Notes: generated from the letters alone by a model not told the origin. 64,000 bases of DNA from Clostridiales bacterium (GCA_015071005.1 SVIG01000007.1:14523-78522); one strand, 5' to 3'; positions 10,911-60,702 are shown, numbered from the stretch's first letter. Program-made: numbers and translations.

Positions 10911-12617
10911 ATGAAACAATTAACGACTTTTACTGAAATTGAATATACTCGTCCGAATTTTGACGAATTAAAGGCTTTTTATAGCGCGTTAAACGAACGG
11001 CTTACAGCGGCGAAAAGCTATGAAGAGGTAAGGGCGTGTATTATGGCGGAAGAAGAGTATTCTTCCCATTTCAATACGATGGCAACGGTTGTGCAAATTC
11101 GGCACACGGTAGACACGTCGGACGCATTTTACGAGGCGGAGGAAGAGTACATTAGCCAAAATTATCCCGAGGCGATGCCCTATATGCAAGGCTTTAATTT
11201 GGCGCTACTCGCTTCACCCTATAAAAAGGAAATCGACGAGGAGTTTGGTGCACAATTTTTGAAAGCGGTAAAGCTTGGCGCGGATAGTTTTTCCGAGAAA
11301 AACGTTTCCCTTATGCAAGAGGAAAACGATTTGACGAACCGCTATCAAAAACTGACGGCGGCTTGCAAAATCCCGTTTGACGGCGGCGAGCATAACTTGT
11401 ATGGAATTTTGAAATATTTTTCCGACCCCGATCGCGAAGTCCGCAAAAAAGCGGCGCAAGCGTATGCGGATTTCTTTGAAAAGAACGATCAAGAGCTTGG
11501 CGAAATCTTCGATAGACTCGTGAAAATTCGCCATAAAATGGGCGAAAATATGGGTTTTAAGAACTTCATTCCGCTTGGTTATATGCAACAAGGTAGAATG
11601 GATTACGACGAAAACGACGTTGCGGCATTCCGCACGCAGGTTTTAGAAGAGCTCGTGCCTTTTTGTGAAAAGCTTTATAAAGCGCAAGCCAAGCGCATCG
11701 GTGTTGATAAAATTCGGTTTTACGACGAACAGCTCATTTTCTTGGGCGGTAATGCCGTGCCGATTGGGGATAGCGCGTATTTGGTGTCTCAAGCGCAAAA
11801 AATGTACCGCGATATGAGCAAGGAAACGGGCGAGTTTATCGATTTTATGATCGAGCACGAGCTTATGGACCTTGACAATAAGCCGAACAAGGCTGCGACG
11901 GGGTATATGACTGCATTGAACGATTATCAAGCCCCGTTTGTCTATTCATGTTTTAACGGAACGACGGGGGATGTGGACGTGTTGACGCATGAAATGGGGC
12001 ATGCGTTTGCAGGGTATATGGCGATGAAAACGCAACCCTTACAAGCTCTTTGGAGTGAGCCGACGGATATCGCGGAAATTCATTCTATGGCGATGGAGCA
12101 GTTTGCGTACCCGTACGCGGAGTTGTTCTTTGGTGAAAAAGCAGAGCAATACCGCTTCCAGCATTTGCAAGAAGCATTAACATTCGTGCCATTTGGGGTT
12201 GCAGTGGATGAATTTCAGCATATCGTCTATGAAAAACCTGAGTTGACGGCGGAAGAACGGAAGTCTGTTTGGCGGGATTTAGAGAAAAAATATATGCCTT
12301 GGCGTGACTACGGCGACGAAAACGAGTTTTTTAATGCAGGCGGTTGGTGGTATCATAAATTGCACATATATCACTATCCATTCTACTATATCAATTACAC
12401 GTTGACGACGATGGGCGCGATGGAGTTCAAGAAAAAAATGTCGGAAGACAAGTCGGCTTGTTGGCAAGATTATATGACCCTTTGCAAAATCGGCGGTTCG
12501 CTTGGTTATCGCGACGCATTAAAGGCGGCAAACCTTGCTGTACCTTTTGAAAAAGGGGGAGTAAAACGCGCGATTTCATATGCGGTAGCATTGCTGAATG
12601 AGAAGATAGGAGAATAA
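10911..12617 (+). CDS. M3-family oligoendopeptidase (PepF-like)
   Basis: 568 aa with the zinc motif HEMGH (LTHEMGHAF). Confidence 0.85.
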   Translation: MKQLTTFTEIEYTRPNFDELKAFYSALNERLTAAKSYEEVRACIMAEEEYSSHFNTMATVVQIRHTVDTSDAFYEAEEEYISQNYPEAMPYMQGFNLALLASPYKKEIDEEFGAQFLKAVKLGADSFSEKNVSLMQEENDLTNRYQKLTAACKIPFDGGEHNLYGILKYFSDPDREVRKKAAQAYADFFEKNDQELGEIFDRLVKIRHKMGENMGFKNFIPLGYMQQGRMDYDENDVAAFRTQVLEELVPFCEKLYKAQAKRIGVDKIRFYDEQLIFLGGNAVPIGDSAYLVSQAQKMYRDMSKETGEFIDFMIEHELMDLDNKPNKAATGYMTALNDYQAPFVYSCFNGTTGDVDVLTHEMGHAFAGYMAMKTQPLQALWSEPTDIAEIHSMAMEQFAYPYAELFFGEKAEQYRFQHLQEALTFVPFGVAVDEFQHIVYEKPELTAEERKSVWRDLEKKYMPWRDYGDENEFFNAGGWWYHKLHIYHYPFYYINYTLTTMGAMEFKKKMSEDKSACWQDYMTLCKIGGSLGYRDALKAANLAVPFEKGGVKRAISYAVALLNEKIGE

Positions 12618-16095: not shown

Positions 16096-16135
16096 AAAAC
16101 CCCGCCGAAAGCATTTTGCTTTCGGCGGGGTTTTT
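16096..16135. terminator. bidirectional intrinsic terminator
   Basis: 13-bp stem CCCCGCCGAAAGC/GCTTTCGGCGGGG, flanked by an A-run and a T-run. Confidence 0.85.
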
Positions 16136-16178
16136 GGTACTCCCTGCGGGAATCGAACCCACAATTAGCCCTTAGGAG
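16135..16178. repeat. direct repeat copy 1 (tRNA-Arg 3' half through the anticodon loop)
   Basis: TGGTACTCCCTGCGGGAATCGAACCCACAATTAGCCCTTAGGAG. It is 43/44 identical to 18160-18203. Confidence 0.9.
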
Positions 16179-16209
16179 GGCGCGGTTATATGCATTTAAC
16201 TACGGACAC
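16135..16209 (-). pseudogene. chimeric tRNA-Arg(CCU)-like junction (host 3' half joined to a foreign 5' half), probably non-functional
   Basis: The T arm, acceptor 3' strand and CCA are intact. The acceptor stem GTGTCCG/AGGGAGT has 2 mismatches and 3 wobbles. The anticodon stem GCGCC/GGGCT has 2 mismatches. Confidence 0.6.
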
Positions 16210-16557
16210 GTATTCAATTTTTCGTAGGATATAGCAATACCCACTTTGGTGAACTTTTTTCGCCCTGGTCACCAAATAGGTCACCAAATTTTATTTTAGC
16301 CGTCTACCGTATCGCCAAAACGCACGATTTTAAGCAGTTTTTGCATTGTTTTGCCCCATTCTACCCAAGTACAATAACCGTGACTTTTGGGGTAAAAAAG
16401 ATGACTACTATTTTAGCCCATTTATATCAAGACAAGCACACGTCCTACACTCACACAGGGAATTTAGGGGAACTTATGGGTAATAAGGGTGACTATATTA
16501 TTTGTGGATAAAAATAAAATTCCGTTCATTTTATTGCCCACCACATACCGTAAGGGA

Positions 16558-16586
16558 TTGAAAAAATTGCAAATATATGGTATAAT
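16558..16586 (+). promoter_or_regulatory. sigma-70-type promoter of the E1 gene
   Basis: TTGAAA (16558-16563), 17-nt spacer, TATAAT (16581-16586). Confidence 0.5.
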
Positions 16587-16620
16587 AAATATAATTTCAC
16601 TCGGTTAAGGAGTTTTTACA

Positions 16621-18000
16621 ATGGAAAAAGTGACTTACTTTGATGTAGAATATGCAAACAATAAAAATAAATCTATTTGTCAAATAGGTATAATGTGTGA
16701 AAATTTTTCTGATGGAGAGCCTTATTATCCTGAAAGAGATATTTATATTAATCCCGAAGACGGATTTGATGATTTTTGTATCAAAATTCACGGAATAACC
16801 AAAGATACAGTAAAAAATGAGCCTGCATTTCCTGCTGTGTGGAAAGAAATAGAAAAATATTTTACAAACGCAGTTATTATTGGGCATAATGTTGCTGGGG
16901 CAGACTTGGACGCATTGGTTAAAGCATTAAAACGTTACAATCTTGATATTCCCGAATTGTATTATATTTGTACTTTAGATTTGGCTCGTCAATATGTACC
17001 TTCCTATGCTGTTGCTGATTACAGTATGTCCACATTATGCGAGTATTTCGGTGTTGATATTGACTCGGAACACAATGCTTTTGATGATGCCTGTGCCTGT
17101 GCAGATTTATTCAAGGCTATAATAGAAGAATATGCTATTGACATTGAAGATATAAAAATTAAAAAATATAATCCTTGCGTGGAAAAGGAATTTTCTCAAT
17201 TTGTAGCAAGTCCCGTTATGAGAAAGGCGATTAGCGAATTTTATGGTGTAATTCGTGGTTTTTCTATTGATAATGAAATATCATCTGAAGAGTTTGACTT
17301 CATTAAAAATTGGAAAAAAGATTTTGCTATTTATGATAACCAAAAAGATATTGCAGATATTATTTCCGTATTAGATAAGATTATAGCAGACGGAACTATA
17401 ACCATTGAGGAGATTGTTGAATTACAAGGCGTAGTAAAAGCATATTTAGATGTTGTATCTACTTCGCCGATTACATTAGCAACTCAAATTTTGGACGGGA
17501 TTTTAAGAGGAATTACTGTTGATGGACAAATAACTGAAAGTGAATGTAAAAATTTGCGTCAATGGTTATATGATAATATTTATCTCTCAGACCATTTCCC
17601 TTTTAATAAAGCAATGGAAGTGTTGGATAAAGTTCTTGAAGATTCTATAATTACAAGAGAAGAGGCAGAATATATAACTAAAATGATAAACGAAATGTTA
17701 AACCCTGTTGATTGCTTAAAAGAAGAAATCAATTCGGTAGACGGAAAACACGTTTGTTTAAGTGGAAATTTTGCTTATGGACAAAAATCTGGCGTTGAGA
17801 AATATATTATTTCAAAAGGTGGTATTATAGATTCTTCTGTTAAAAAATCCACGGATATTTTAATGATTGGAAATTGCGAATGCCAAGCATATTCTAATGG
17901 AACATATGGAACAAAAGTGAAAAAAGCAATAGAGTTTAATGAAAAAGGCTGTCACATAAAAATTATAAAAGAGTCTGATTTCTTTTCTTCAATTAAATAG
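16621..18000 (+). CDS. DEDDh 3'-5' exonuclease fused to two TerB-like repeats and a C-terminal BRCT domain
   Basis: 459 aa. Exo motifs FDVEYA, GHNVAGADLDAL and HNAFDDACACADLF (aa 1-170). Two ~70-aa internal repeats (aa ~205-277 and ~288-360) each carry D-G-x-I-(T/S)-x-x-E type motifs. A BRCT-like tail begins GKHVCLSGNF at about aa 372. The gene is visibly AT-rich compared with its flanks. Confidence 0.8.
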   Translation: MEKVTYFDVEYANNKNKSICQIGIMCENFSDGEPYYPERDIYINPEDGFDDFCIKIHGITKDTVKNEPAFPAVWKEIEKYFTNAVIIGHNVAGADLDALVKALKRYNLDIPELYYICTLDLARQYVPSYAVADYSMSTLCEYFGVDIDSEHNAFDDACACADLFKAIIEEYAIDIEDIKIKKYNPCVEKEFSQFVASPVMRKAISEFYGVIRGFSIDNEISSEEFDFIKNWKKDFAIYDNQKDIADIISVLDKIIADGTITIEEIVELQGVVKAYLDVVSTSPITLATQILDGILRGITVDGQITESECKNLRQWLYDNIYLSDHFPFNKAMEVLDKVLEDSIITREEAEYITKMINEMLNPVDCLKEEINSVDGKHVCLSGNFAYGQKSGVEKYIISKGGIIDSSVKKSTDILMIGNCECQAYSNGTYGTKVKKAIEFNEKGCHIKIIKESDFFSSIK

Positions 18001-18116
18001 CAATTAAAGGCGAACTGTTAAAGTTCGACTTTTCCGTTGTATTACGGGCGGGAGTTATAAAGTTGAATAGAAAACCGTATAGGGTGGGGCTAAATGTCCT
18101 GCCCTTAATTTTTTTA

Positions 18117-18156
18117 CAAAGAAAAAAGAACGTAAATCTTGTTCGATTTACGTTCT
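18117..18156 (-). terminator. intrinsic terminator placed directly 3' of the second tRNA 3'-half copy
   Basis: 12-bp stem AGAACGTAAATC/GATTTACGTTCT. A T-run follows on the minus strand (plus-strand GAAAAAA, 18121-18127). Confidence 0.7.
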
Positions 18157-18159
18157 TAT

Positions 18160-18203
18160 TGGTACTCCCTGCGGGAATTGAACCCACAATTAGCCCTTAG
18201 GAG
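18160..18203. repeat. direct repeat copy 2 (tRNA-Arg 3' half through the anticodon loop)
   Basis: 43/44 identical to 16135-16178. The single difference is in the T loop (TTCAATT versus TTCGATT in the tRNA sense). Non-tRNA sequence (TCGAAGG) follows the core. Confidence 0.9.
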
Positions 18204-18560
18204 TCGAAGGCTTTTTGACGTATTTCGTTAAAAACGTGCAGTTTTGTGTGATTTTGTTAGTTCGGTGAGCTAAAAATTCTATTATTTCGTTAAAAATGTG
18301 CAATATCTTTAAAAACTTGGAATAACTTTTAAAATGAATTTATACCAAAATTATACCAATTTTCAAAAAATTGGGTCAAAAAAACAAGGAAAAATGTGAA
18401 AAAGAGAATAATAATATGGATACAGGATACCCCCCTATGTTTTATAAATAAGCGAATGTATCCACTTATATAATACATAAATTAGGAAATCAAGCCGATT
18501 GTTTCATAGGAAGCAGTCGGCTTTTTTTATTGCAAAAATTTCAAAAGGAGGAAAAGAAAA

Positions 18561-18938
18561 ATGCAGTTTAAGAACAGCACACACAAAAGACGGTTCATGA
18601 GCGCAATCAAGCCTATGGACCAAAAAGACAAAACGCAGATGGCGGTAGCATTCTTGCTTACGGCAACAAAAGCGCTGTGGGATCGGAGTCGGATTTGTAT
18701 GATAAACAATAAAATTCTCGTTCATCGAATACACCTCAATCATACCAGCGAAGAAGTCTACGTACTATACTGCGCGGCAAAAGATATCGCCTTTGGCACG
18801 ACGCTCATTTCTGTGAGTGACCTCGTGGATGAAGAGTTGTTATCGAGAGAGCTTTATCGACTTATCTTCACGGCACTGGAGATTAAGAGATTTGGCGTAG
18901 GAATTGTAATTCCGAGTCCGCAAGAAAAGAAAAAATAA
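18561..18938 (+). CDS. hypothetical protein (mobile-element cargo)
   Basis: 125-aa ORF with SD AAAGGAGG. First gene of a co-oriented, tightly packed block. Confidence 0.65.
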   Translation: MQFKNSTHKRRFMSAIKPMDQKDKTQMAVAFLLTATKALWDRSRICMINNKILVHRIHLNHTSEEVYVLYCAAKDIAFGTTLISVSDLVDEELLSRELYRLIFTALEIKRFGVGIVIPSPQEKKK

Positions 18939-18959
18939 TAGGGAGGTAGAACAACGCAT

Positions 18960-19544
18960 GTGGAAAGTATCTTAGAACAAAACAGTCAGGGAATTGAAAC
19001 ACTTTACGGCTCTTCAAACGTTCGCAATAAAAAATTGCGCGGCATAAAAGAGGTGGCGGAGTTCATTTGCAAGGACGGACAGTACGGCGACTTAACAATT
19101 AAACGTAAAGACGGACGCCTGTTTTTAAGAACGAATGGAATATACGTGAGGGAGATTTTCGATTTTGATTATGCAGAAAAACTATTTAAAATATTAGTTC
19201 CAATGCAAAGGGAAGTGGCAAAGGAAGGAGGTGAAGAAAAAATGAATGAATTTGAAAAGATGCGAAGAATGGCGGAAAGGTACAAAGCGGAATATCCGCC
19301 TGGGACGCGCGTAGTGCTTCATCACATGGCGGATCCGTATTCGCCCGTAGAAAGCGGAACGCGTGGAACGGTAAAGCATGTGGATGACGCAGGTCAATTG
19401 CATATGCAATGGGACAACGGCAGAACGCTGGCGTTAGTTCCTGGGGAGGACTCATTCCGTAAGCTCACCGCTGAAGAATTGGCGGAAGAGCAGGGGCCGG
19501 TATTAGACGAGGAGGTGGTAGACACGCCCGTACAGAGCATGTAG
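18960..19544 (+). CDS. hypothetical protein with a DUF4314-like C-terminal domain
   Basis: 194 aa with a GTG start. The C-terminal YPPGTRVVLHHMADPYSPVESGTRGTVKHVDDAGQLHMQWDNGRTLALVPGEDSF matches my recollection of a domain common in Firmicutes conjugative elements. Confidence 0.6.
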   Translation: MESILEQNSQGIETLYGSSNVRNKKLRGIKEVAEFICKDGQYGDLTIKRKDGRLFLRTNGIYVREIFDFDYAEKLFKILVPMQREVAKEGGEEKMNEFEKMRRMAERYKAEYPPGTRVVLHHMADPYSPVESGTRGTVKHVDDAGQLHMQWDNGRTLALVPGEDSFRKLTAEELAEEQGPVLDEEVVDTPVQSM

Positions 19545-19585
19545 GGCTGAAAGCAGAATAGAAAAATAAGGGAAGCGGATAGCGA

Positions 19586-20746
19586 ATGGCTATTCGTTTT
19601 TTTGATATGTTTTCAGGAATAGGCGGATTCCGCAGTGGTTTAGAAGCCATAGGCGGATTTGAGTGCGTGGGGCATTGCGAGATAGACAAGCAAGCCAACC
19701 AAGCGTACTGTGCAATGTATGACGTGAAGCAAGAGGAGGTGTATTTCAATGACGCAACAAAAATCGATCCAAAAGACGTACCAGATATCGACCTTATATG
19801 TGCAGGATTTCCTTGCCAAAGTTTTTCAATTGCTGGAAGACGACGAGGATTCGACGACGTCAGAGGTACGCTATTCTTTGAAATTGCCAGAATCGCTGCG
19901 CATAAGCGACCTGCATATTTGCTCCTTGAAAACGTACCCGGCTTGCTCTCGCATAACAGAGGGTGGACGTTTACAGTCATCCTCAATGCGTTATCAGAAT
20001 TGGGGTACGATGTCGTGTGGCAGGTGTGTAACAGCAAGGATTTTGGAGTTCCGCAATCCCGAAAAAGAGTGTACCTTATCTGCTATCTTAGAGAGAAATG
20101 CACCGCCAAAATATTTTCTTTCCACGGTACAAACGCAAAGACTCCTGTACAAGTCTTGCCAGGCAGATCAGGAAGCCGAGTGTACAGCCCCGTCGGAGTC
20201 GGAATAACGCTAGTTAGCAACGTAGGCGGATTTGGGGGTAAGACAGGTCTATACGACGTGAATAGTCCCGTGAAAATTAAAACGGAAGACGGCTATGCTC
20301 TGGGATATCATTTCATTGATATGAACTGTCCGCCAAACTTAACGGACGAGGCACGTTGCATCACAGCGCGCCAAAACGCGGGGATTAGTAACCGCAAGGG
20401 GGAACACTCAGGAATCTTCATTGAAGACGAACCAAGGGCGATTCTAACGCCAGAAAGAGAAACTGTAAGACAACAGGGCAGGCGGATAAAGGATATAAAC
20501 GAGCCTATGTTCACTTTAACGGTTTGTGATAGGCATGGGATATTGCGTTATGGGAAAGTACGACGGCTGATGCCGATAGAATGTTGGCGCTTGCAAGGCT
20601 TCACGGACGAGCAATTTTATAAAGCGGAAGCAACGGGACTGAAAGACGGCCCGTTGTATAAAATGGCGGGTAATGCAGTGAGCGTACCCGTTATTTCTGC
20701 GTTAGGAGAAATAATCAAGAAAAATTATGAAAAATACAACAAATAA
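19586..20746 (+). CDS. DNA (cytosine-5)-methyltransferase
   Basis: Motif I FSGIGGF, motif IV GFPCQSFS, motif VI LLENVPGL, motif VIII QSRKRVY and motif X GNAVSVPV. Confidence 0.95.
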   Translation: MAIRFFDMFSGIGGFRSGLEAIGGFECVGHCEIDKQANQAYCAMYDVKQEEVYFNDATKIDPKDVPDIDLICAGFPCQSFSIAGRRRGFDDVRGTLFFEIARIAAHKRPAYLLLENVPGLLSHNRGWTFTVILNALSELGYDVVWQVCNSKDFGVPQSRKRVYLICYLREKCTAKIFSFHGTNAKTPVQVLPGRSGSRVYSPVGVGITLVSNVGGFGGKTGLYDVNSPVKIKTEDGYALGYHFIDMNCPPNLTDEARCITARQNAGISNRKGEHSGIFIEDEPRAILTPERETVRQQGRRIKDINEPMFTLTVCDRHGILRYGKVRRLMPIECWRLQGFTDEQFYKAEATGLKDGPLYKMAGNAVSVPVISALGEIIKKNYEKYNK

Positions 20747-20758
20747 GGAGAGTGAATT

Positions 20759-21829
20759 ATGCCCAATTGGGTAACGAACTTTATAGAACTGGAAGGTGAT
20801 GAAAAGAGCATCGCCGAAATGAAGGAAAGCATAAAAAAAGATGATTTTGGCTTGGGGACGATAGATTTTAATAAACTCATCCCGATGCCGAAAGAATTGG
20901 ATATTGTAGCAGGCAGTTCCACGGATAAAGGCTTGAAAGCGTATTCGCTGTTTGCGGAAATTTATCAGCTGGGAACAAAACGCACGAAGGAAGAACTGTT
21001 GAATATCCCTGAAAAGAGTGAGCAGGCTTTTTTGAAATACAAGAAAGATATCAAGTCTGAAGACTGGGAACTTGGCAGACAAGCCTACCGCAACGTATTG
21101 CAATACGGATATCCGACGTGGTATGAGTGGTCGTGTAATAATTGGGGGACAAAGTGGAATTCCTGCGGGTATACGGAAGACGTAGATTATAACGCTGATC
21201 CAAACAAGTTATGGCTACAAACCGCGTGGTCGGCACCTCATCCCATTCTGCAAAAGCTGTCGGAGCAATATCCCGATATTAAATTCACGCATGAATGGGC
21301 GGACGAAGACCTTGGCTCGAATTGTGGCCGTAGGGTATATTTCGGCGGAGAATGCGTTGAAACATATCTACCTGAAACGAACAAGGAAGCGTTGGAAATG
21401 GCGGCGCGAATATGGGAGCTTGACTTGGAGGATTGTGGATTAAGACCGAATGCGTCAGGGACGGATTACGTGTATACTCACCGAGAGGAGTTTGGGTTGA
21501 TACAGGTGTTTGATAAATACGCTTTGTACACCAATGAGCGCCTGACGGAAGCGGATATTCCGAAGGGAACGCACCTGTATCATTTTAGATACACGGACGA
21601 CAACGACCGTATTGGTTCGATAGAAAAATCCGTTCAAGTCAATCATGCAGGCTCGGTGATTACGAAAGAGCCATTCGACCTTGGCGAAGAGGGGCAAGTC
21701 ACGTTTACGAGAGAAACGGATCCTTGTTTCCTTTGCCAAGAAATTACGATGGAAGATTATCTGCAAAACTATGACAATCTGGAAGAGCTTTACGACCAAG
21801 ACCAAGGCATGGGAGGTATGACGCAATGA
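20759..21829 (+). CDS. hypothetical protein with a DUF1281/Api92-like N-terminus (plasmid/ICE-associated)
   Basis: 356 aa. N-terminal MPNWVTNFIELEGDE and WGTKWN motifs are as recalled for DUF1281-type proteins. The C-terminal half resembles ICE polyvalent-protein-associated domains. Both assignments are from memory. Confidence 0.55.
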   Translation: MPNWVTNFIELEGDEKSIAEMKESIKKDDFGLGTIDFNKLIPMPKELDIVAGSSTDKGLKAYSLFAEIYQLGTKRTKEELLNIPEKSEQAFLKYKKDIKSEDWELGRQAYRNVLQYGYPTWYEWSCNNWGTKWNSCGYTEDVDYNADPNKLWLQTAWSAPHPILQKLSEQYPDIKFTHEWADEDLGSNCGRRVYFGGECVETYLPETNKEALEMAARIWELDLEDCGLRPNASGTDYVYTHREEFGLIQVFDKYALYTNERLTEADIPKGTHLYHFRYTDDNDRIGSIEKSVQVNHAGSVITKEPFDLGEEGQVTFTRETDPCFLCQEITMEDYLQNYDNLEELYDQDQGMGGMTQ

Positions 21830-22398
21830 TACAGAAAATCAACGCGGAAGACCTTCGCAAGATGGCGGGCAAGGAAGGACTGATTTTGCAAGGCTGCGGA
21901 GGTGATCCGCAAGAATGGCTGGACGGCATCAACGAGCTGTTGACGAAGGAAGGTATCTTGCAGAACGGTACGAAGTTTGAAAATGCATACGTTTTCCAAA
22001 ACGAAGGGGTAACGAATATCCTTTTCCCATTTGAAGAAAACGTGCAGGTGGACATCGGCAAGCTGGCAATGTGGCGGCTTATGACGCACTCGAACTTCAG
22101 CGGAAAATGGCTGTCCGATTACGTAGATAATAGGCTGGGCGGTTTTATCCGCGCAACGCAAAAACCTGACTGTCCGCTTATCGGCGAGGACGGCAATATT
22201 TTTAATCTTATGGGCATTGCTTCTCGAACTCTTCGCGAACATGGTATGGGCGAACAGGCAAAAGAGATGTCTGAACGTATCCGCGCAAGCGGTAGTTATG
22301 ACGAAGCGTTGAACATCATCGGCGAGTACGTAAATATCACTTCCGCAGAGGAAAGCGATATGGATATGGACGACGCTGATTTTGATTTCAAACAATAA
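21826..22398 (+). CDS. hypothetical protein (ICE-type cargo)
   Basis: 190 aa. The start overlaps the upstream stop (ATGA), suggesting translational coupling. Confidence 0.65.
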   Translation: MIQKINAEDLRKMAGKEGLILQGCGGDPQEWLDGINELLTKEGILQNGTKFENAYVFQNEGVTNILFPFEENVQVDIGKLAMWRLMTHSNFSGKWLSDYVDNRLGGFIRATQKPDCPLIGEDGNIFNLMGIASRTLREHGMGEQAKEMSERIRASGSYDEALNIIGEYVNITSAEESDMDMDDADFDFKQ

Positions 22399-22420
22399 AA
22401 ACGAAAAGGAGGTAAACGGT

Positions 22421-22537
22421 ATGGAAGTAGCATTGTGGTTCATTGTAGGCTTTCTTATCGGCGGATGCACGGCAGGCACGGTAATGTGTTGTTCCTTGCT
22501 TAAGCATACGGCGAGCAGAAAAAGTAAAAACGACTAA
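22421..22537 (+). CDS. small hydrophobic peptide (38 aa, one TM segment, Cys-rich)
   Basis: MEVALWFIVGFLIGGCTAGTVMCCSLLKHTASRKSKND, with SD AAAGGAGG 8 nt upstream. It falls below the ORF-track length cutoff. A hairpin with a T-run follows at about 22550-22600. Confidence 0.45.
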   Translation: MEVALWFIVGFLIGGCTAGTVMCCSLLKHTASRKSKND

Positions 22538-22641
22538 GTAAAGTAAAACCCAAAGCGGTATCAATCGTTCTTAAAAAGGAGATTGGTGCCGCTTTTTTCT
22601 TTTTAAGACGGTCGATGGCGCGGCGGAAAGAGAGGTAAAGA

Positions 22642-23628
22642 ATGAAAACACCCGTGTCAAGAGTAGGGAATAAATCTTCTATTCTACACATTTTGTACGC
22701 CGTGTTTCCCCAAAAATACGGCAGGTTCATTGACGTATTCGGCGGTTCGGGAAGTGTGCTTCTCGGTAAGCCCGAAGTGCATCCGTTCGAGGTGTACAAC
22801 GACTTTGACAGAAACCTTGTCAACCTATTCCGTTGCATGAAAGACCGTACGATGGCAACGATACGCGAAATCGGATTTTGCAACCTAAACTCGCGCGAAG
22901 ATTTTATCGCCATAAAGAAATTCTTTGAATGCGGGAAATTCACTGACGAGTATTTGTCGGAAGAGTTGCAAATGACGGAACTTACTTTACCACCGCTGGA
23001 AGCAGAGGAGATAAAAGAAACACGATTGCGGATCACGCAAGACTATGACGTAAGGCGTGCGGCAATGTTCTTAAAACTCCTTAGATACAGCTATTCCAGC
23101 AGTTGCAAATCATTCGCGTCGCAACCGTTCGATATTCGAAAGCTCTTTGGGCTTATCAAGGAGCTGGAAGACAGAATGGCAAACGTTGTGGTGGAGAATC
23201 AGGACTTTGAAACGCTTATTAAGCATTACGACAGACCTGACAGTTTCTTCTACGCAGATCCGCCATACTTTTCCACGGAAGATATGTACGAAGTAGGCTT
23301 TGGCTGGGACGACCACGTGCGCTTACGGGATACCCTGAAAAATATTCAAGGCAAATTCCTGTTATCATATAACGATTGTCCTGAAATCAGGGAGCTGTAC
23401 GAGGGCTTTTCCATGTTCGATTTCTCGCGAACGCATAGTATGGCGCAACGCTACGAAGCGGGCAAGGAATTCAAGGAACTGTTAATAGCCAATTATGATT
23501 TATACGAAAGAGCGAGGTCGAAACCTTTGCAGATGACGCTGTTTGAATACAAAGAAGAAGATTTAGACGTAGAAAAAATATTAAAGACCTGCATATTAAA
23601 GTCAAGCGATTTTAGGGTAAAAAAATAA
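22642..23628 (+). CDS. DNA N6-adenine methyltransferase (Dam/D12-class)
   Basis: 328 aa. SAM motif FGGSGSV, NDFDRNLVNLF, and the catalytic DPPY (FYADPPYF). Confidence 0.85.
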   Translation: MKTPVSRVGNKSSILHILYAVFPQKYGRFIDVFGGSGSVLLGKPEVHPFEVYNDFDRNLVNLFRCMKDRTMATIREIGFCNLNSREDFIAIKKFFECGKFTDEYLSEELQMTELTLPPLEAEEIKETRLRITQDYDVRRAAMFLKLLRYSYSSSCKSFASQPFDIRKLFGLIKELEDRMANVVVENQDFETLIKHYDRPDSFFYADPPYFSTEDMYEVGFGWDDHVRLRDTLKNIQGKFLLSYNDCPEIRELYEGFSMFDFSRTHSMAQRYEAGKEFKELLIANYDLYERARSKPLQMTLFEYKEEDLDVEKILKTCILKSSDFRVKK

Positions 23629-23715
23629 AAAAATTTTTGCGGTGTATTTGCGCAAGCAAAAACAGCGCCAACAGTCACTGCTGACGCAAAAATATTATGG
23701 AACGTTTAAAGTAAA

Positions 23716-23859
23716 TTATTGTCACAAAATGTACCTATTCAAACTGTAAGTAAATATATGGGGCATAGTGATTCAACGACGACGTTAAAGGTTTATAGTC
23801 ACTTTATCCCAGACACACAAGAACAAGCAATGGAAGCATTAAGCATGATATTGCAGTAG
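23716..23859 (+). pseudogene. tyrosine recombinase/integrase remnant (C-terminal 47 codons only)
   Basis: It translates to LLSQNVPIQTVSKYMGHSDSTTTLKVYSHFIPDTQEQAMEALSMILQ*, the (L/M)GHS...T...YxH catalytic-Tyr region. An in-frame stop lies immediately upstream, and the preceding gene ends at 23628. Confidence 0.7.
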
Positions 23860-23888
23860 TATTTTTAATTTATTTTCTTACTAAAATA

Positions 23889-23930
23889 AAAATCATAGCA
23901 ACCAAGATTTTATTGGCTGCTATGATTTTA
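23889..23930 (+). terminator. intrinsic terminator after the integrase remnant
   Basis: Stem AATCATAGCA/TGCTATGATT followed by TTTTA. Confidence 0.6.
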
Positions 23931-23931
23931 A

Positions 23932-24006
23932 TGGTGTTCCCGCAGGGAATCGAACCCCGAATTAAGCCTTAGGAGGGCTTCGTTATTTCCGTTTAACTAC
24001 GAGAAC
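23932..24006 (-). tRNA. tRNA-Arg(CCU), intact, island-borne
   Basis: 75 nt. Acceptor GTTCTCG/CGGGAAC (one G-U), D arm GTTA-AACGGAAA-TAAC, anticodon arm AAGCC-CTCCTAA-GGCTT, T arm CGGGG-TTCGATT-CCCTG, then discriminator A and CCA. Confidence 0.85.
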
Positions 24007-24132
24007 ATTTTTTAAGTTTTGGAATAAAATCTAGACCGATTTTTATACCGATTTTAAATAAATACTTAAAAATGAAGGTTTTTTGATGTTTTTTTGTTAA
24101 AATTCGCCCGTTTTTGATGGATAGACCTATCG

Positions 24133-24171
24133 CTTAGGAGGGGCTTGTTATATCCATTTAACTAAGGAAGC
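24133..24171 (-). pseudogene. orphaned 5' half of the host tRNA-Arg(CCU) (acceptor 5' strand through the anticodon loop)
   Basis: The minus strand reads GCTTCCT-TA-GTTA-AATGGATA-TAAC-A-AGCCC-CTCCTAAG. The AGCCC and GCTTCCT strands pair with GGGCT and AGGGAGT of the 3' halves at 16135 and 18160. Confidence 0.75.
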
Positions 24172-24187: not shown

Positions 24188-24216
24188 ATTATACCCCCTT
24201 TACAGAAAAAAAGCAA
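24188..24216 (-). promoter_or_regulatory. promoter of the (now split) host tRNA-Arg gene
   Basis: The minus strand reads TTGCTT (24216-24211), 17-nt spacer, TATAAT (24193-24188). The -10 element ends 16 nt upstream of the tRNA 5' end. Confidence 0.55.
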
Positions 24217-60570: not shown

Positions 60571-60702
60571 TATTGTCTTCTCCTAAGATGGTTCTTTTGA
60601 TGTTATTATAACACAATGTTTATTATTTTTCAATATTTTTTTATGAATTATTTGTTAGGAGTTCGGCGAAAAGAAAAGAACTTTCCGTGTGGGAAGTTCT
60701 TT

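Follow-up and report, generated by a model that had tools for sequence, protein, structure and literature searches.

We analysed a window of 64,000 nt from a Clostridiales bacterium (GCA_015071005.1 SVIG01000007.1:14523-78522), in which some 8 kb separate a left flank with CobW/COG0523 and DUF1980 genes and a terminator from a right flank with gdhA. The two halves of a tRNA-Arg(CCU) gene stand at the outer ends of this interval, which consists of two segments that differ in composition and have core copies at their bounds, E1 (16179-18195, 31% GC) and E2 (18204-24132, ~45% GC). The features of the locus, with comparisons to a contig of the same species (L002) and to related loci, are as follows.

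16096..16134: perfect 18-bp hairpin, a bidirectional terminator common to the host tRNA and the DUF1980/COG0523 operon
16135..16170, minus: displaced host tRNA-Arg(CCU) 3' half (3'D), encoded CCA included; identical in L002 and in the intact genes of L101-L104
16171..16178: core copy 4, outermost junction (core search)
16179..16209, minus: foreign decayed tRNA 5' half (5'D), fused to the host 3' half at the core (sequence and stem count)
16621..18000, plus: E1 cargo, encoding a DEDDh (DnaQ-like) exonuclease whose C-terminal region is BRCT-like (Pfam RNase_T, 2e-26)
18126..18195, minus: 3' half copy C (3'C, 18160-18195), T-loop TTCAATT, with its own predicted terminator (18126-18157)
18196..18203: core copy 3, junction of the E2 arm and 3' half C
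18204..18384, minus: conserved island arm at the second junction, sharing 92% identity across 181 nt with the int-proximal arm of the conspecific island (match in L016; also aligned with L002)
18561..23628, plus: E2 cargo (Pfam, NCBIfam, PHROGs, PADLOC)
23710..23859, plus: tyrosine integrase remnant, last 49 codons and stop codon (tblastn, translation and DNA matches)
23889..23929, minus: predicted intrinsic terminator behind the island tRNA
23932..24006, minus: intact island-borne tRNA-Arg(CCU), the putative replacement gene (ARAGORN; Rfam RF00005, 60.7 bits)
24007..24132, minus: island end spacer Y, 126 nt from the junction to the island tRNA, with TATCC at 24119-24123, 11 nt past the loop
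24133..24140: core copy 1 (CTCCTAAG on the minus strand), junction of the host 5' half and the island
24141..24171, minus: orphan host tRNA-Arg(CCU) 5' half (5'A), comprising acceptor 5' strand, D arm and anticodon-stem 5' strand
24188..24216, minus: promoter-like TTGCTT-17-TATAAT, its end lying 16 nt ahead of the orphan 5' half; identical in L002

Read on the minus strand, the 5' half (24171..24141) is GCTTCCT-TA-GTTA-AATGGATA-TAAC-A-AGCCC, followed by the loop CTCCTAA(G) at 24140..24133. Core, 3' half and ACCA together occupy 16178..16135; a second copy, with one mismatch in 44 nt, is found at 18203..18160, and no such copies are expected by chance. ARAGORN recognised the joined halves as a 75-nt tRNA-Arg(cct). 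Because it also accepts mismatched chimeras, the stems were counted directly: 5'A with either 3'D or 3'C pairs at 5/5 positions of the anticodon stem and 7/7 of the acceptor stem, and with the 3' half of the neighbouring intact tRNA at only 4/5 and 5/7. The core CTTAGGAG was found at 16171, 18196, 23968 and 24133, and a fifth copy, unrelated to these, is at 60580 on the minus strand; the expectation is 0.67 per window, and five copies were reached in 0 of 100 shuffles. The halves, their cloverleaf, the four core sites and the flanks had all been described in an initial annotation of this DNA, and each was recovered here. The strongest support comes from four metagenome contigs of related species (L101-L104; gdhA at 74-84% amino acid identity), which carry 5'A, core and 3'D verbatim as an intact gene beside gdhA in the same orientation, the orphan 5' half being identical to it at 39/39 positions. 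The halves were thus once a single tRNA-Arg(CCU) gene, which site-specific insertion evidently divided precisely within the anticodon loop. The promoter-like site upstream of 5'A, whose TTGCTT hexamer matches at only 3/6 positions and was thus not listed by the promoter scan, is presumably the host tRNA promoter.

In Nanoarchaeum equitans, the 5' and 3' halves of split tRNA genes lie kilobases apart, with the split after the anticodon region. The present halves, likewise encoded kilobases apart, could in the same way give separate transcripts that are then joined, or anneal, in trans, and promoter-like sequences do occur near both: the presumed host promoter precedes the 5' half, and the E2 arm contains, ahead of 3' half C, a TTGACC-18-TATAAT site (18350-18379, promoter scan) directed at the core. 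However, complementary joining sequences are absent here, and duplex energies between the 5'-half trailer and the 3'-half leaders do not stand out from those of shuffles (fraction 0.13-0.25). The locus has an intact cognate tRNA, and the orphan 5' half of L002 has acquired two substitutions that break one anticodon-stem pair. To our knowledge, bacteria also do not have the archaeal splicing endonuclease pathway. We therefore give a functional split tRNA practically no credence and regard the halves, unlike those of N. equitans, as decaying relics of a gene, not as working genes.

The core copy at 23968 proved to be the anticodon loop of the intact tRNA-Arg(CCU) 126 nt inside the insertion, which the initial annotation had overlooked. 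This island tRNA pairs within its own stems at 5/5 and 7/7 positions and differs in sequence from the host gene, although it has the isotype and anticodon of the disrupted gene; it varies with the island, not with the host. Downstream of the host 5' half at the E2 junction lies non-tRNA DNA, and the host gene remains broken. The E2 cargo begins with a 125-aa ORF and a DUF4314 protein, followed by a Dcm-type C5 methyltransferase, a DUF1281_C/LPD28 protein, a 190-aa ORF and, last, a Dam-like N6 methyltransferase. The two methyltransferases are termed orphan. The E2 arm contains the direct repeats TGCAC[A/G]TTTTTAACGAAATA at 18221-18240 and 18283-18302. Besides the integrase remnant, searches of 16179-24132 with Pfam, NCBIfam and tblastn found no integrase or recombinase in E1 or E2. 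The remnant is 70% identical to residues 421-467 of the L002 integrase (tblastn), includes a stretch that aligns with the near-invariant LKVYSHF segment of the family, and is preceded by an in-frame stop; its DNA matches the 3' ends of int genes in ~70 loci.

These results bear on the proposal of the initial annotation that the locus bears the classic signature of tyrosine-integrase insertion into a tRNA gene. The site-specific split at the anticodon loop was borne out; the interval, however, holds a 49-codon remnant in place of an integrase gene, an absence that the initial annotation had missed, and the designation as classic did not survive, given that the host gene is not rebuilt and a separate tRNA of different sequence lies further in. 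One or two classic islands would have an attP with the tRNA 3' part, so that the gene is regenerated at one junction. In favour of this is 3' half C, whose likeness to the host 3' half stops exactly at the tRNA 3' end and which forms a perfect tRNA with the 5' half. The junction as it now stands argues against it, as do the sole intact gene being that of the island, the missing integrase and the non-restoring layout of related loci (see below). We consider this explanation unlikely, and a restoring mode for E2 was rejected because it is contradicted by the non-tRNA DNA at the junction. Before the arrival of E2, E1 alone could possibly have been a classic insertion, with the gene regenerated via 3' half C.

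In conspecific contigs whose flanks are nearly identical, the same site is occupied by a different island of 5.2 kb, which has the same layout, a different island tRNA, and genes for an intact tyrosine-type integrase of 469 aa, an HTH protein, HipA and an AbiO/Nhi-like helicase. The stems of the window island tRNA and of that in L002 differ by compensatory changes. This comparison shows that the presumed replacement tRNA is part of the variable island and that occupancy of the site varies among strains. No empty site in the same species and no excised circle were seen.

The layout extends to the family of this integrase, which was surveyed in 80 GTDB loci. An intact tRNA-Arg(CCU) lies downstream of int (minus strand) in 44 of these, and in 42 of the 44 one or more orphan 5' halves with CTCCTAA at their end lie 165-320 nt past the island tRNA (1.2% of random positions are positive in this test); nine have two or three. 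An intact PF00589 integrase accompanies the split tRNA in the conspecific island and in the 44 related loci. TATCC at +11 is found in 31/53 orphan junctions of relatives, and the distal orphan halves pair at 5/5 and 7/7 positions in L016, L030 and L032. One island tRNA with its spacer recurs in five species representatives (L029, L030, L032, L033, L034) next to four different orphan 5' halves. In the family tRNA alignment, compensatory changes occur at 17/17 stem pairs and the loop is invariant, which indicates that the island tRNAs are under selection. In 25 of the 80 loci there is no tRNA-Arg(CCU) within 6 kb, and at least one relative (L057, tRNA-Glu) has no orphan half. Structural or lysis genes were found in none of the window island, L002, L030 and L032, and close integrase relatives were absent from IMG/VR.

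The presence of four tRNA-like pieces within 8 kb, in metagenome-type data, might also suggest local tRNA duplication and decay with non-site-specific insertion, or an assembly or binning artefact. Yet every junction falls at the same 7-8 nt, and in dozens of species this type of junction goes with a single integrase family. At least 14 independent metagenome assemblies reproduce the arrangement, so that it is not an assembly artefact, and we judge this explanation as a whole to be very improbable.

We are fairly confident that the locus is an occupied hot spot of small islands, whose integrase of ~470 aa acts by split-and-replace of tRNA-Arg(CCU). The family tyrosine integrase would recombine inside the 7-nt anticodon loop CTCCTAA, and because the attachment site of the island has only 7-8 bp in common with the target (the short common core CTCCTAA(G)), the host gene would be left split, with a functional host tRNA rebuilt at neither junction. 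Of the two halves, the 5' one would remain next to gdhA and the 3' one next to the COG0523 operon. To compensate, the island would supply a complete tRNA-Arg(CCU) of its own, which lies within it at 130-300 nt from the junction and points the same way as the orphan 5' half. Given this shared orientation, a promoter-like sequence that is conserved and no terminator predicted within spacer Y (24007-24132), the island tRNA can probably be transcribed from the retained host tRNA promoter. With all but 49 integrase codons lost, E2 would be fixed in place; it keeps its tRNA, both arm regions, the methyltransferases, the DUF4314 and DUF1281_C/LPD28 proteins and two uncharacterised ORFs.

The weakest part of this explanation is E1 as a product of the same mechanism. 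E1 is ~2 kb long, with 31% GC against about 45% in the flanks, and departs from the family layout in having no arm, spacer or intact tRNA. Its exonuclease resembles the candidate defence gene PDC-S48 (PADLOC, 1e-30), and homologues of this cargo were found neither in the 80 related loci nor in IMG/VR. A near-identical tRNA 3'-half copy lies at one edge and the decayed 5' half of another tRNA-Arg at the other, where 16138-16209 forms a full-length pseudo-tRNA of 23.4 bits (Rfam threshold 29) that had also been overlooked. The stems of this left-junction chimera of 5'D and the host 3' half pair at only 3/5 and 5/7 positions, and the D-loop of 5'D has GC where other tRNAs at this locus have GG. 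In L002, 5'D is absent and the island arm occupies that position. The chimera suggests that core copies recombined on further occasions, and E1 most likely arrived, or stayed behind, via additional integrase-mediated exchanges between such copies. The two tandem integrations envisaged initially are a plausible route to the present arrangement, among others.

Split-and-replace has so far been described only for some phages and is found here in small non-phage islands, which appear to be widespread in gut Clostridia; the window holds an immobilised, integrase-less relic with E1 as a second, 2-kb segment. More tentatively, and with slightly less than even confidence, we propose a large undescribed family of non-phage islands with mainly defence cargo that spreads in gut Christensenellales by tRNA gene replacement. 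If so, an island would capture a promoter by destroying tRNA-Arg(CCU), or UCU in one relative, and installing its own copy behind the host promoter. Later islands would enter the tRNA of the previous island, leaving a readable stack of orphan 5' halves, and host need for the island tRNA would lock the island in despite integrase decay, as in the window.

Compared with classic tRNA/tmRNA islands, the locus has in common the anticodon-loop crossover, the displaced 3' fragment at the far end, a strain-variable hot spot and tandem occupancy. Anticodon loops are reportedly one sublocation class of tRNA-targeting islands (Williams, in 2002). In the Islander definition, an island-borne tRNA fragment regenerates the target at one junction and the integrase lies within the island (PMC4383910); here, in contrast, a whole separate tRNA gene would take this role, and E2 did not regenerate the gene.

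A closer parallel is tRNA-dependent lysogeny of actinobacteriophages, e.g. Fionnbharth (K4), Cluster L and Gaia, in which split-and-replace has experimental precedent (Guerrero-Bustamante & Hatfull, mBio 2024, PMC10865867); that study also names the Lj965 prophage of Lactobacillus johnsonii as a likely example. In such lysogeny, viability of the integrant requires the tRNA of the element. The islands resemble these phages in a tyrosine integrase with a host tRNA gene as target, a likeness at the sequence level only, in carrying a tRNA of the same anticodon, and in a short core with the tRNA rebuilt at neither junction, as also in the 42 relatives. Close integrase-family relatives may use the restoring mode in both settings (here possibly L057). 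Because the islands have no phage genes, however, the label of lysogeny is inapplicable; they are 2-10 kb long, have no IMG/VR relatives and carry mostly defence-type cargo. The Fionnbharth tRNA is located away from the attachment core and has its own promoter (PMC10865867), whereas the island tRNA lies directly beside the core and is co-oriented with the orphan 5' half. Orphan 5' halves are, moreover, stacked serially, up to three, and the window copy has no integrase. The hosts differ as well, here belonging to Christensenellales (Clostridia), and the islands target tRNA-Arg(CCU), or tRNA-Arg(UCU) in L065. A tRNA-Arg(UCU), if the genome of the window encodes one elsewhere, could read AGG by wobble, so that the host may not depend on the island tRNA.

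The locus is a relic of a tRNA integration system that splits its target gene and replaces it with a tRNA of its own, and such split-and-replace integration probably occurs widely among gut Clostridia. To judge from its sequence, the copy in the window is an inert and decayed relic, and the pattern across the family outranks it in interest. The split gene and the interval between its halves contain the following features:

24171..24141, minus strand: host tRNA-Arg(CCU) 5' half, followed by the loop CTCCTAA plus G at 24140..24133 and then by non-tRNA sequence
23932-24006, minus strand: intact tRNA-Arg(CCU), found by ARAGORN and Rfam (60.7 bits)
23710-23859: integrase remnant, only the 49 C-terminal codons of a tyrosine integrase, converging on the intact tRNA
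22642-23628: Dam-like methylase
21826-22398: 190-aa ORF
20759-21829: DUF1281_C/LPD28 protein
19586-20746: Dcm-type methylase
18960-19544: DUF4314 protein
18561-18938: 125-aa ORF
18195..18160, minus strand: second copy of the 3' half
16621-18000: DEDDh exonuclease with a BRCT-like tail, resembling PDC-S48
16179-16209: foreign 5' half with a damaged D-loop, joined through the core to the host 3' half to give a full-length tRNA-like chimera at the left junction
16170..16135, minus strand: matching host 3' half with ACCA

The initial annotation had described a tRNA-Arg(CCU) gene whose 5' half at 24171..24141 runs into CTCCTAA and whose 3' half lies at 16170..16135 and is repeated at 18195..18160. 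This anatomy was borne out, the two 3' halves differing by one mismatch over 44 nt of core and 3' half. The 8-nt core, reported at four positions of the interval, is indeed present there four times, and the window holds five copies against 0.67 expected; nothing tRNA-like surrounds the fifth, at 60580. Joining the 5' half in silico with either 3' half gave a 75-nt tRNA-Arg(cct) in ARAGORN. In all-against-all joins, ARAGORN also passed mismatched chimeras, such as the host 5' half with the 3' half of the island tRNA, and stem pairs were therefore counted explicitly instead. By direct count the host 5' half paired with either 3' half at 5/5 anticodon-stem and 7/7 acceptor-stem positions, confirming the full stems claimed earlier, and with the 3' half of the neighbouring intact tRNA at 4/5 and 5/7.

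The decisive check on the former unity of the halves was a metagenome scan with the joined sequence. Four contigs of related species (L101-L104) carry an intact tRNA-Arg(CCU) identical to the host 5' half, core and host 3' half combined, adjoining gdhA (74-84% amino acid identity) in the same orientation as in the window. This shows that both window halves were formerly a single gene. The scan found the intact gene in related species only, and the sequence that follows it on their short contigs is not the COG0523 operon. No empty site was found in the same species, where searches for exact matches to the DUF1980, gdhA and exonuclease proteins gave two configurations only, both occupied.

The reading of the locus as an insertion stands in that one gene was split at the anticodon loop; the classic restoring island does not, since the gene is not rebuilt, a separate intact tRNA is present and the 8 kb contain no recombinase gene. 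The intact tRNA, the chimeric left junction and this missing recombinase gene had all escaped the initial annotation. The intact tRNA lies 126 nt downstream of the orphan 5' half, co-oriented with it and followed by its own terminator; its sequence is unlike the host halves and pairs perfectly with itself. The left-junction chimera scored 23.4 bits, under the Rfam threshold, and its stems pair at only 3/5 and 5/7 positions. At a relaxed threshold, Rfam returned two tRNA-like matches only between 15.5 and 24.8 kb, plus sub-threshold terminator-like ones (caiA, rli38 and others), which were treated as chance.

For the two flanking proteins, DUF1980 and gdhA, the searches for exact matches covered independent metagenome assemblies. 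Many samples show the arrangement of the window. In the second configuration the site is occupied by another island, of 5.2 kb, encoding a 469-aa integrase (PF00589), an HTH protein, HipA and an AbiO/Nhi-like helicase. Its anatomy matches that of the window, in this order:

orphan host 5' half, ending in CTCCTAAG
spacer of ~200 nt
the island's own intact tRNA-Arg(CCU)
cargo, then the integrase gene (int)
arm with repeated TGCACGTTTTTAA... motifs
CTCCTAAG, host 3' half and host terminator

The flanks of the two configurations are 97-99% identical, whereas their island tRNAs show compensatory differences in the anticodon and T stems; the intact tRNA is therefore the island's and not the host's. 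Furthermore, the arm beside the core at 18196-18203 matches the int-proximal arm of the conspecific island with 92% identity across 181 nt, which places the segment 18204-24132 (E2) in the same family, its integrase having been lost. E2 appears to have been frozen in place by this loss, with its tRNA kept.

In the conspecific contig L002, the orphan 5' half (16228-16260, compared with window 24133-24171) carries two substitutions, a D-loop change and a second that disrupts a pair of the anticodon stem, behind an upstream promoter identical to that of the window. This is consistent with a decaying relic behind a conserved promoter. A split tRNA whose halves are joined in trans was excluded on the grounds that the flanks lack complementarity, the orphans are decaying and an intact copy is present.

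The integrase has at least 380 relatives at E<1e-20, the named ones being from Clostridia MAGs, and a profile scan of GTDB species representatives yielded 80 loci, mostly in Christensenellales-type gut MAGs, the closest (96% identity) in a Candidatus Scatosoma sp. An intact minus-strand tRNA-Arg(cct) lies no more than 6 kb downstream of int in 44 loci, often just 45-170 nt past the stop codon. Nearly all of these (42/44) have at least one orphan 5' half ending in CTCCTAA, 165-320 nt past the loop of the intact tRNA, by a test that fires at 1.2% of random positions; eight loci have two orphan halves and one (L050) has three. A single island tRNA with its spacer is common to five species representatives (L029, L030, L032, L033 and L034), with four different orphan halves in front. 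Where contigs reach the far end (L016, L030 and L032), orphan 5' half and distal 3' half pair 5/5 and 7/7. Two family integrases, L030 and L078, lie ~16 kb apart on the same contig, JAZSOI010000012.1. The L030 island sits within the tRNA of the older L078 island; this split tRNA was recovered in both its halves, which pair 5/5 and 7/7, showing that serial insertion into an earlier island's tRNA does occur. An alignment of 28 island tRNAs revealed compensatory changes at 17/17 predicted stem pairs and an invariant loop; these genes are under selection and probably working.

It is shown that island ends and target share only the 7-8 nt loop, that the host tRNA gene stays unrestored and that a cognate island tRNA accompanies it in every case; the remaining steps are inferred. 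The integrase would exchange strands within the loop. Upstream of the host 5' half is a promoter-like TTGCTT-17-TATAAT, conserved in the window and L002. Behind this site, the orphan half and the island tRNA run in one direction with no predicted terminator between them, and on these grounds the island tRNA would probably be read from the captured host promoter. A strong promoter-like site in the arm (18350-18379, minus strand; TTGACC-18-TATAAT with an upstream TG) points to the attachment core, and L002 has a counterpart at about 11220-11250 (TTGAAA-17-TATAAT). In the chromosome this site faces the orphan 3' half; on a circle formed by excision it could serve the island tRNA by reading through the spacer into it. 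The island spacer also carries TATCC exactly 11 nt past the CTCCTAA loop, at 24119-24123 (minus strand) in the window and at 31/53 orphan junctions in loci L016-L095. It mirrors the tRNA D-loop GGATA, 11-15 nt ahead of the loop, so that the junction of host 5' half and island forms a dyad around the 7-nt loop. TATCC and GGATA may be inverted core-type integrase binding sites.

Cargo among relatives includes GmrSD, HNH, a Dcm/NgoBV restriction-modification pair and AAA_13 ATPases. Defence-type regions lie at L002 12916-15829 (HipA with an HTH protein and the AbiO/Nhi-like helicase, E=5e-146), L030 1989-8190, L032 5083-8806 and window 16621-18000 (the PDC-S48-like exonuclease), and the tRNA-Arg(CCU) site behaves as a defence-island hot spot. 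A phage origin was rejected: an integrase profile scan of IMG/VR found no close relatives, only unrelated integrases of ~25% identity. Rather than phages, the family members are small islands whose cargo is mainly of the defence type.

The segment 16179-18195 (E1) has a GC content of ~31%, compared with about 45% in E2 and the core-genome flanks, which suggests a different source. It is bounded by core copies and carries one gene only, which resembles a candidate defence gene and whose exonuclease product has no homologues in the 80 related loci or in IMG/VR. One edge is the second 3' half, which comes with a terminator of its own and whose similarity to the host breaks off precisely where the tRNA ends; the opposite edge is the foreign, decayed 5' half. 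Reciprocal exchange between a chromosomal core copy and a circle whose tRNA-like site joined the decayed 5' half, core and second 3' half fits, as it would yield these edges and bounding cores. Deletions between core copies within a serial array fit too and could yield the same picture.

Classic islands as a rule restore their target tRNA gene (PMC4383910), unlike this locus. Non-restoring integration with a compensating element tRNA was demonstrated in 2024 in actinobacteriophages only, with experimental proof of tRNA-dependent lysogeny in mycobacteriophages and Gordonia phages; these phages use an 8-17 bp core, leave the tRNA unrestored and integrate viably only with a phage tRNA of matching isotype, and the authors asked how widespread such integration is (PMC10865867). 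The mechanism proposed for the window locus matches theirs. However, its elements are non-phage islands, host clade and tRNA target differ, the island tRNA immediately adjoins the attachment core and follows the host promoter, orphan halves occur in stacks, and the window copy is without its integrase. In the literature searched, no such system is described for Christensenellales or non-phage islands.

The window locus and its relatives suggest that non-phage islands of a major gut clade, bearing restriction, Abi, toxin-antitoxin and methylase genes, use the same logic. Split-and-replace would offer islands a simple addiction mechanism, and in stacked orphan halves one invasion after another is naturally recorded. 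Island finders built around a regenerated tRNA with a displaced fragment will mis-map these islands, and tRNA counts in such MAGs will take in island-borne genes. The compact int-attP-tRNA cassette could become an integration tool for hard-to-manipulate gut Clostridia.

Split-and-replace at tRNA-Arg(UCU) is seen in L065 (12380-12740, minus strand), where the order of features is host tRNA-Gly, orphan tRNA-Arg 5' half with CTTCTAA at its end, CTATCC-containing spacer and intact island tRNA-Arg(TCT). L057, with a tRNA-Glu CTC beside int and no orphan half, may be a restoring-mode relative. Five loci (L048, L050, L051, L059 and L092) combine a Clostridia-type integrase and tRNA with MAG labels of Akkermansia, Bacteroidaceae, Parasutterella, Bacteroidales or Cyanobacteria; since three of the five are on short 3-4 kb contigs, mis-binning of mobile DNA is likelier than a true host range.
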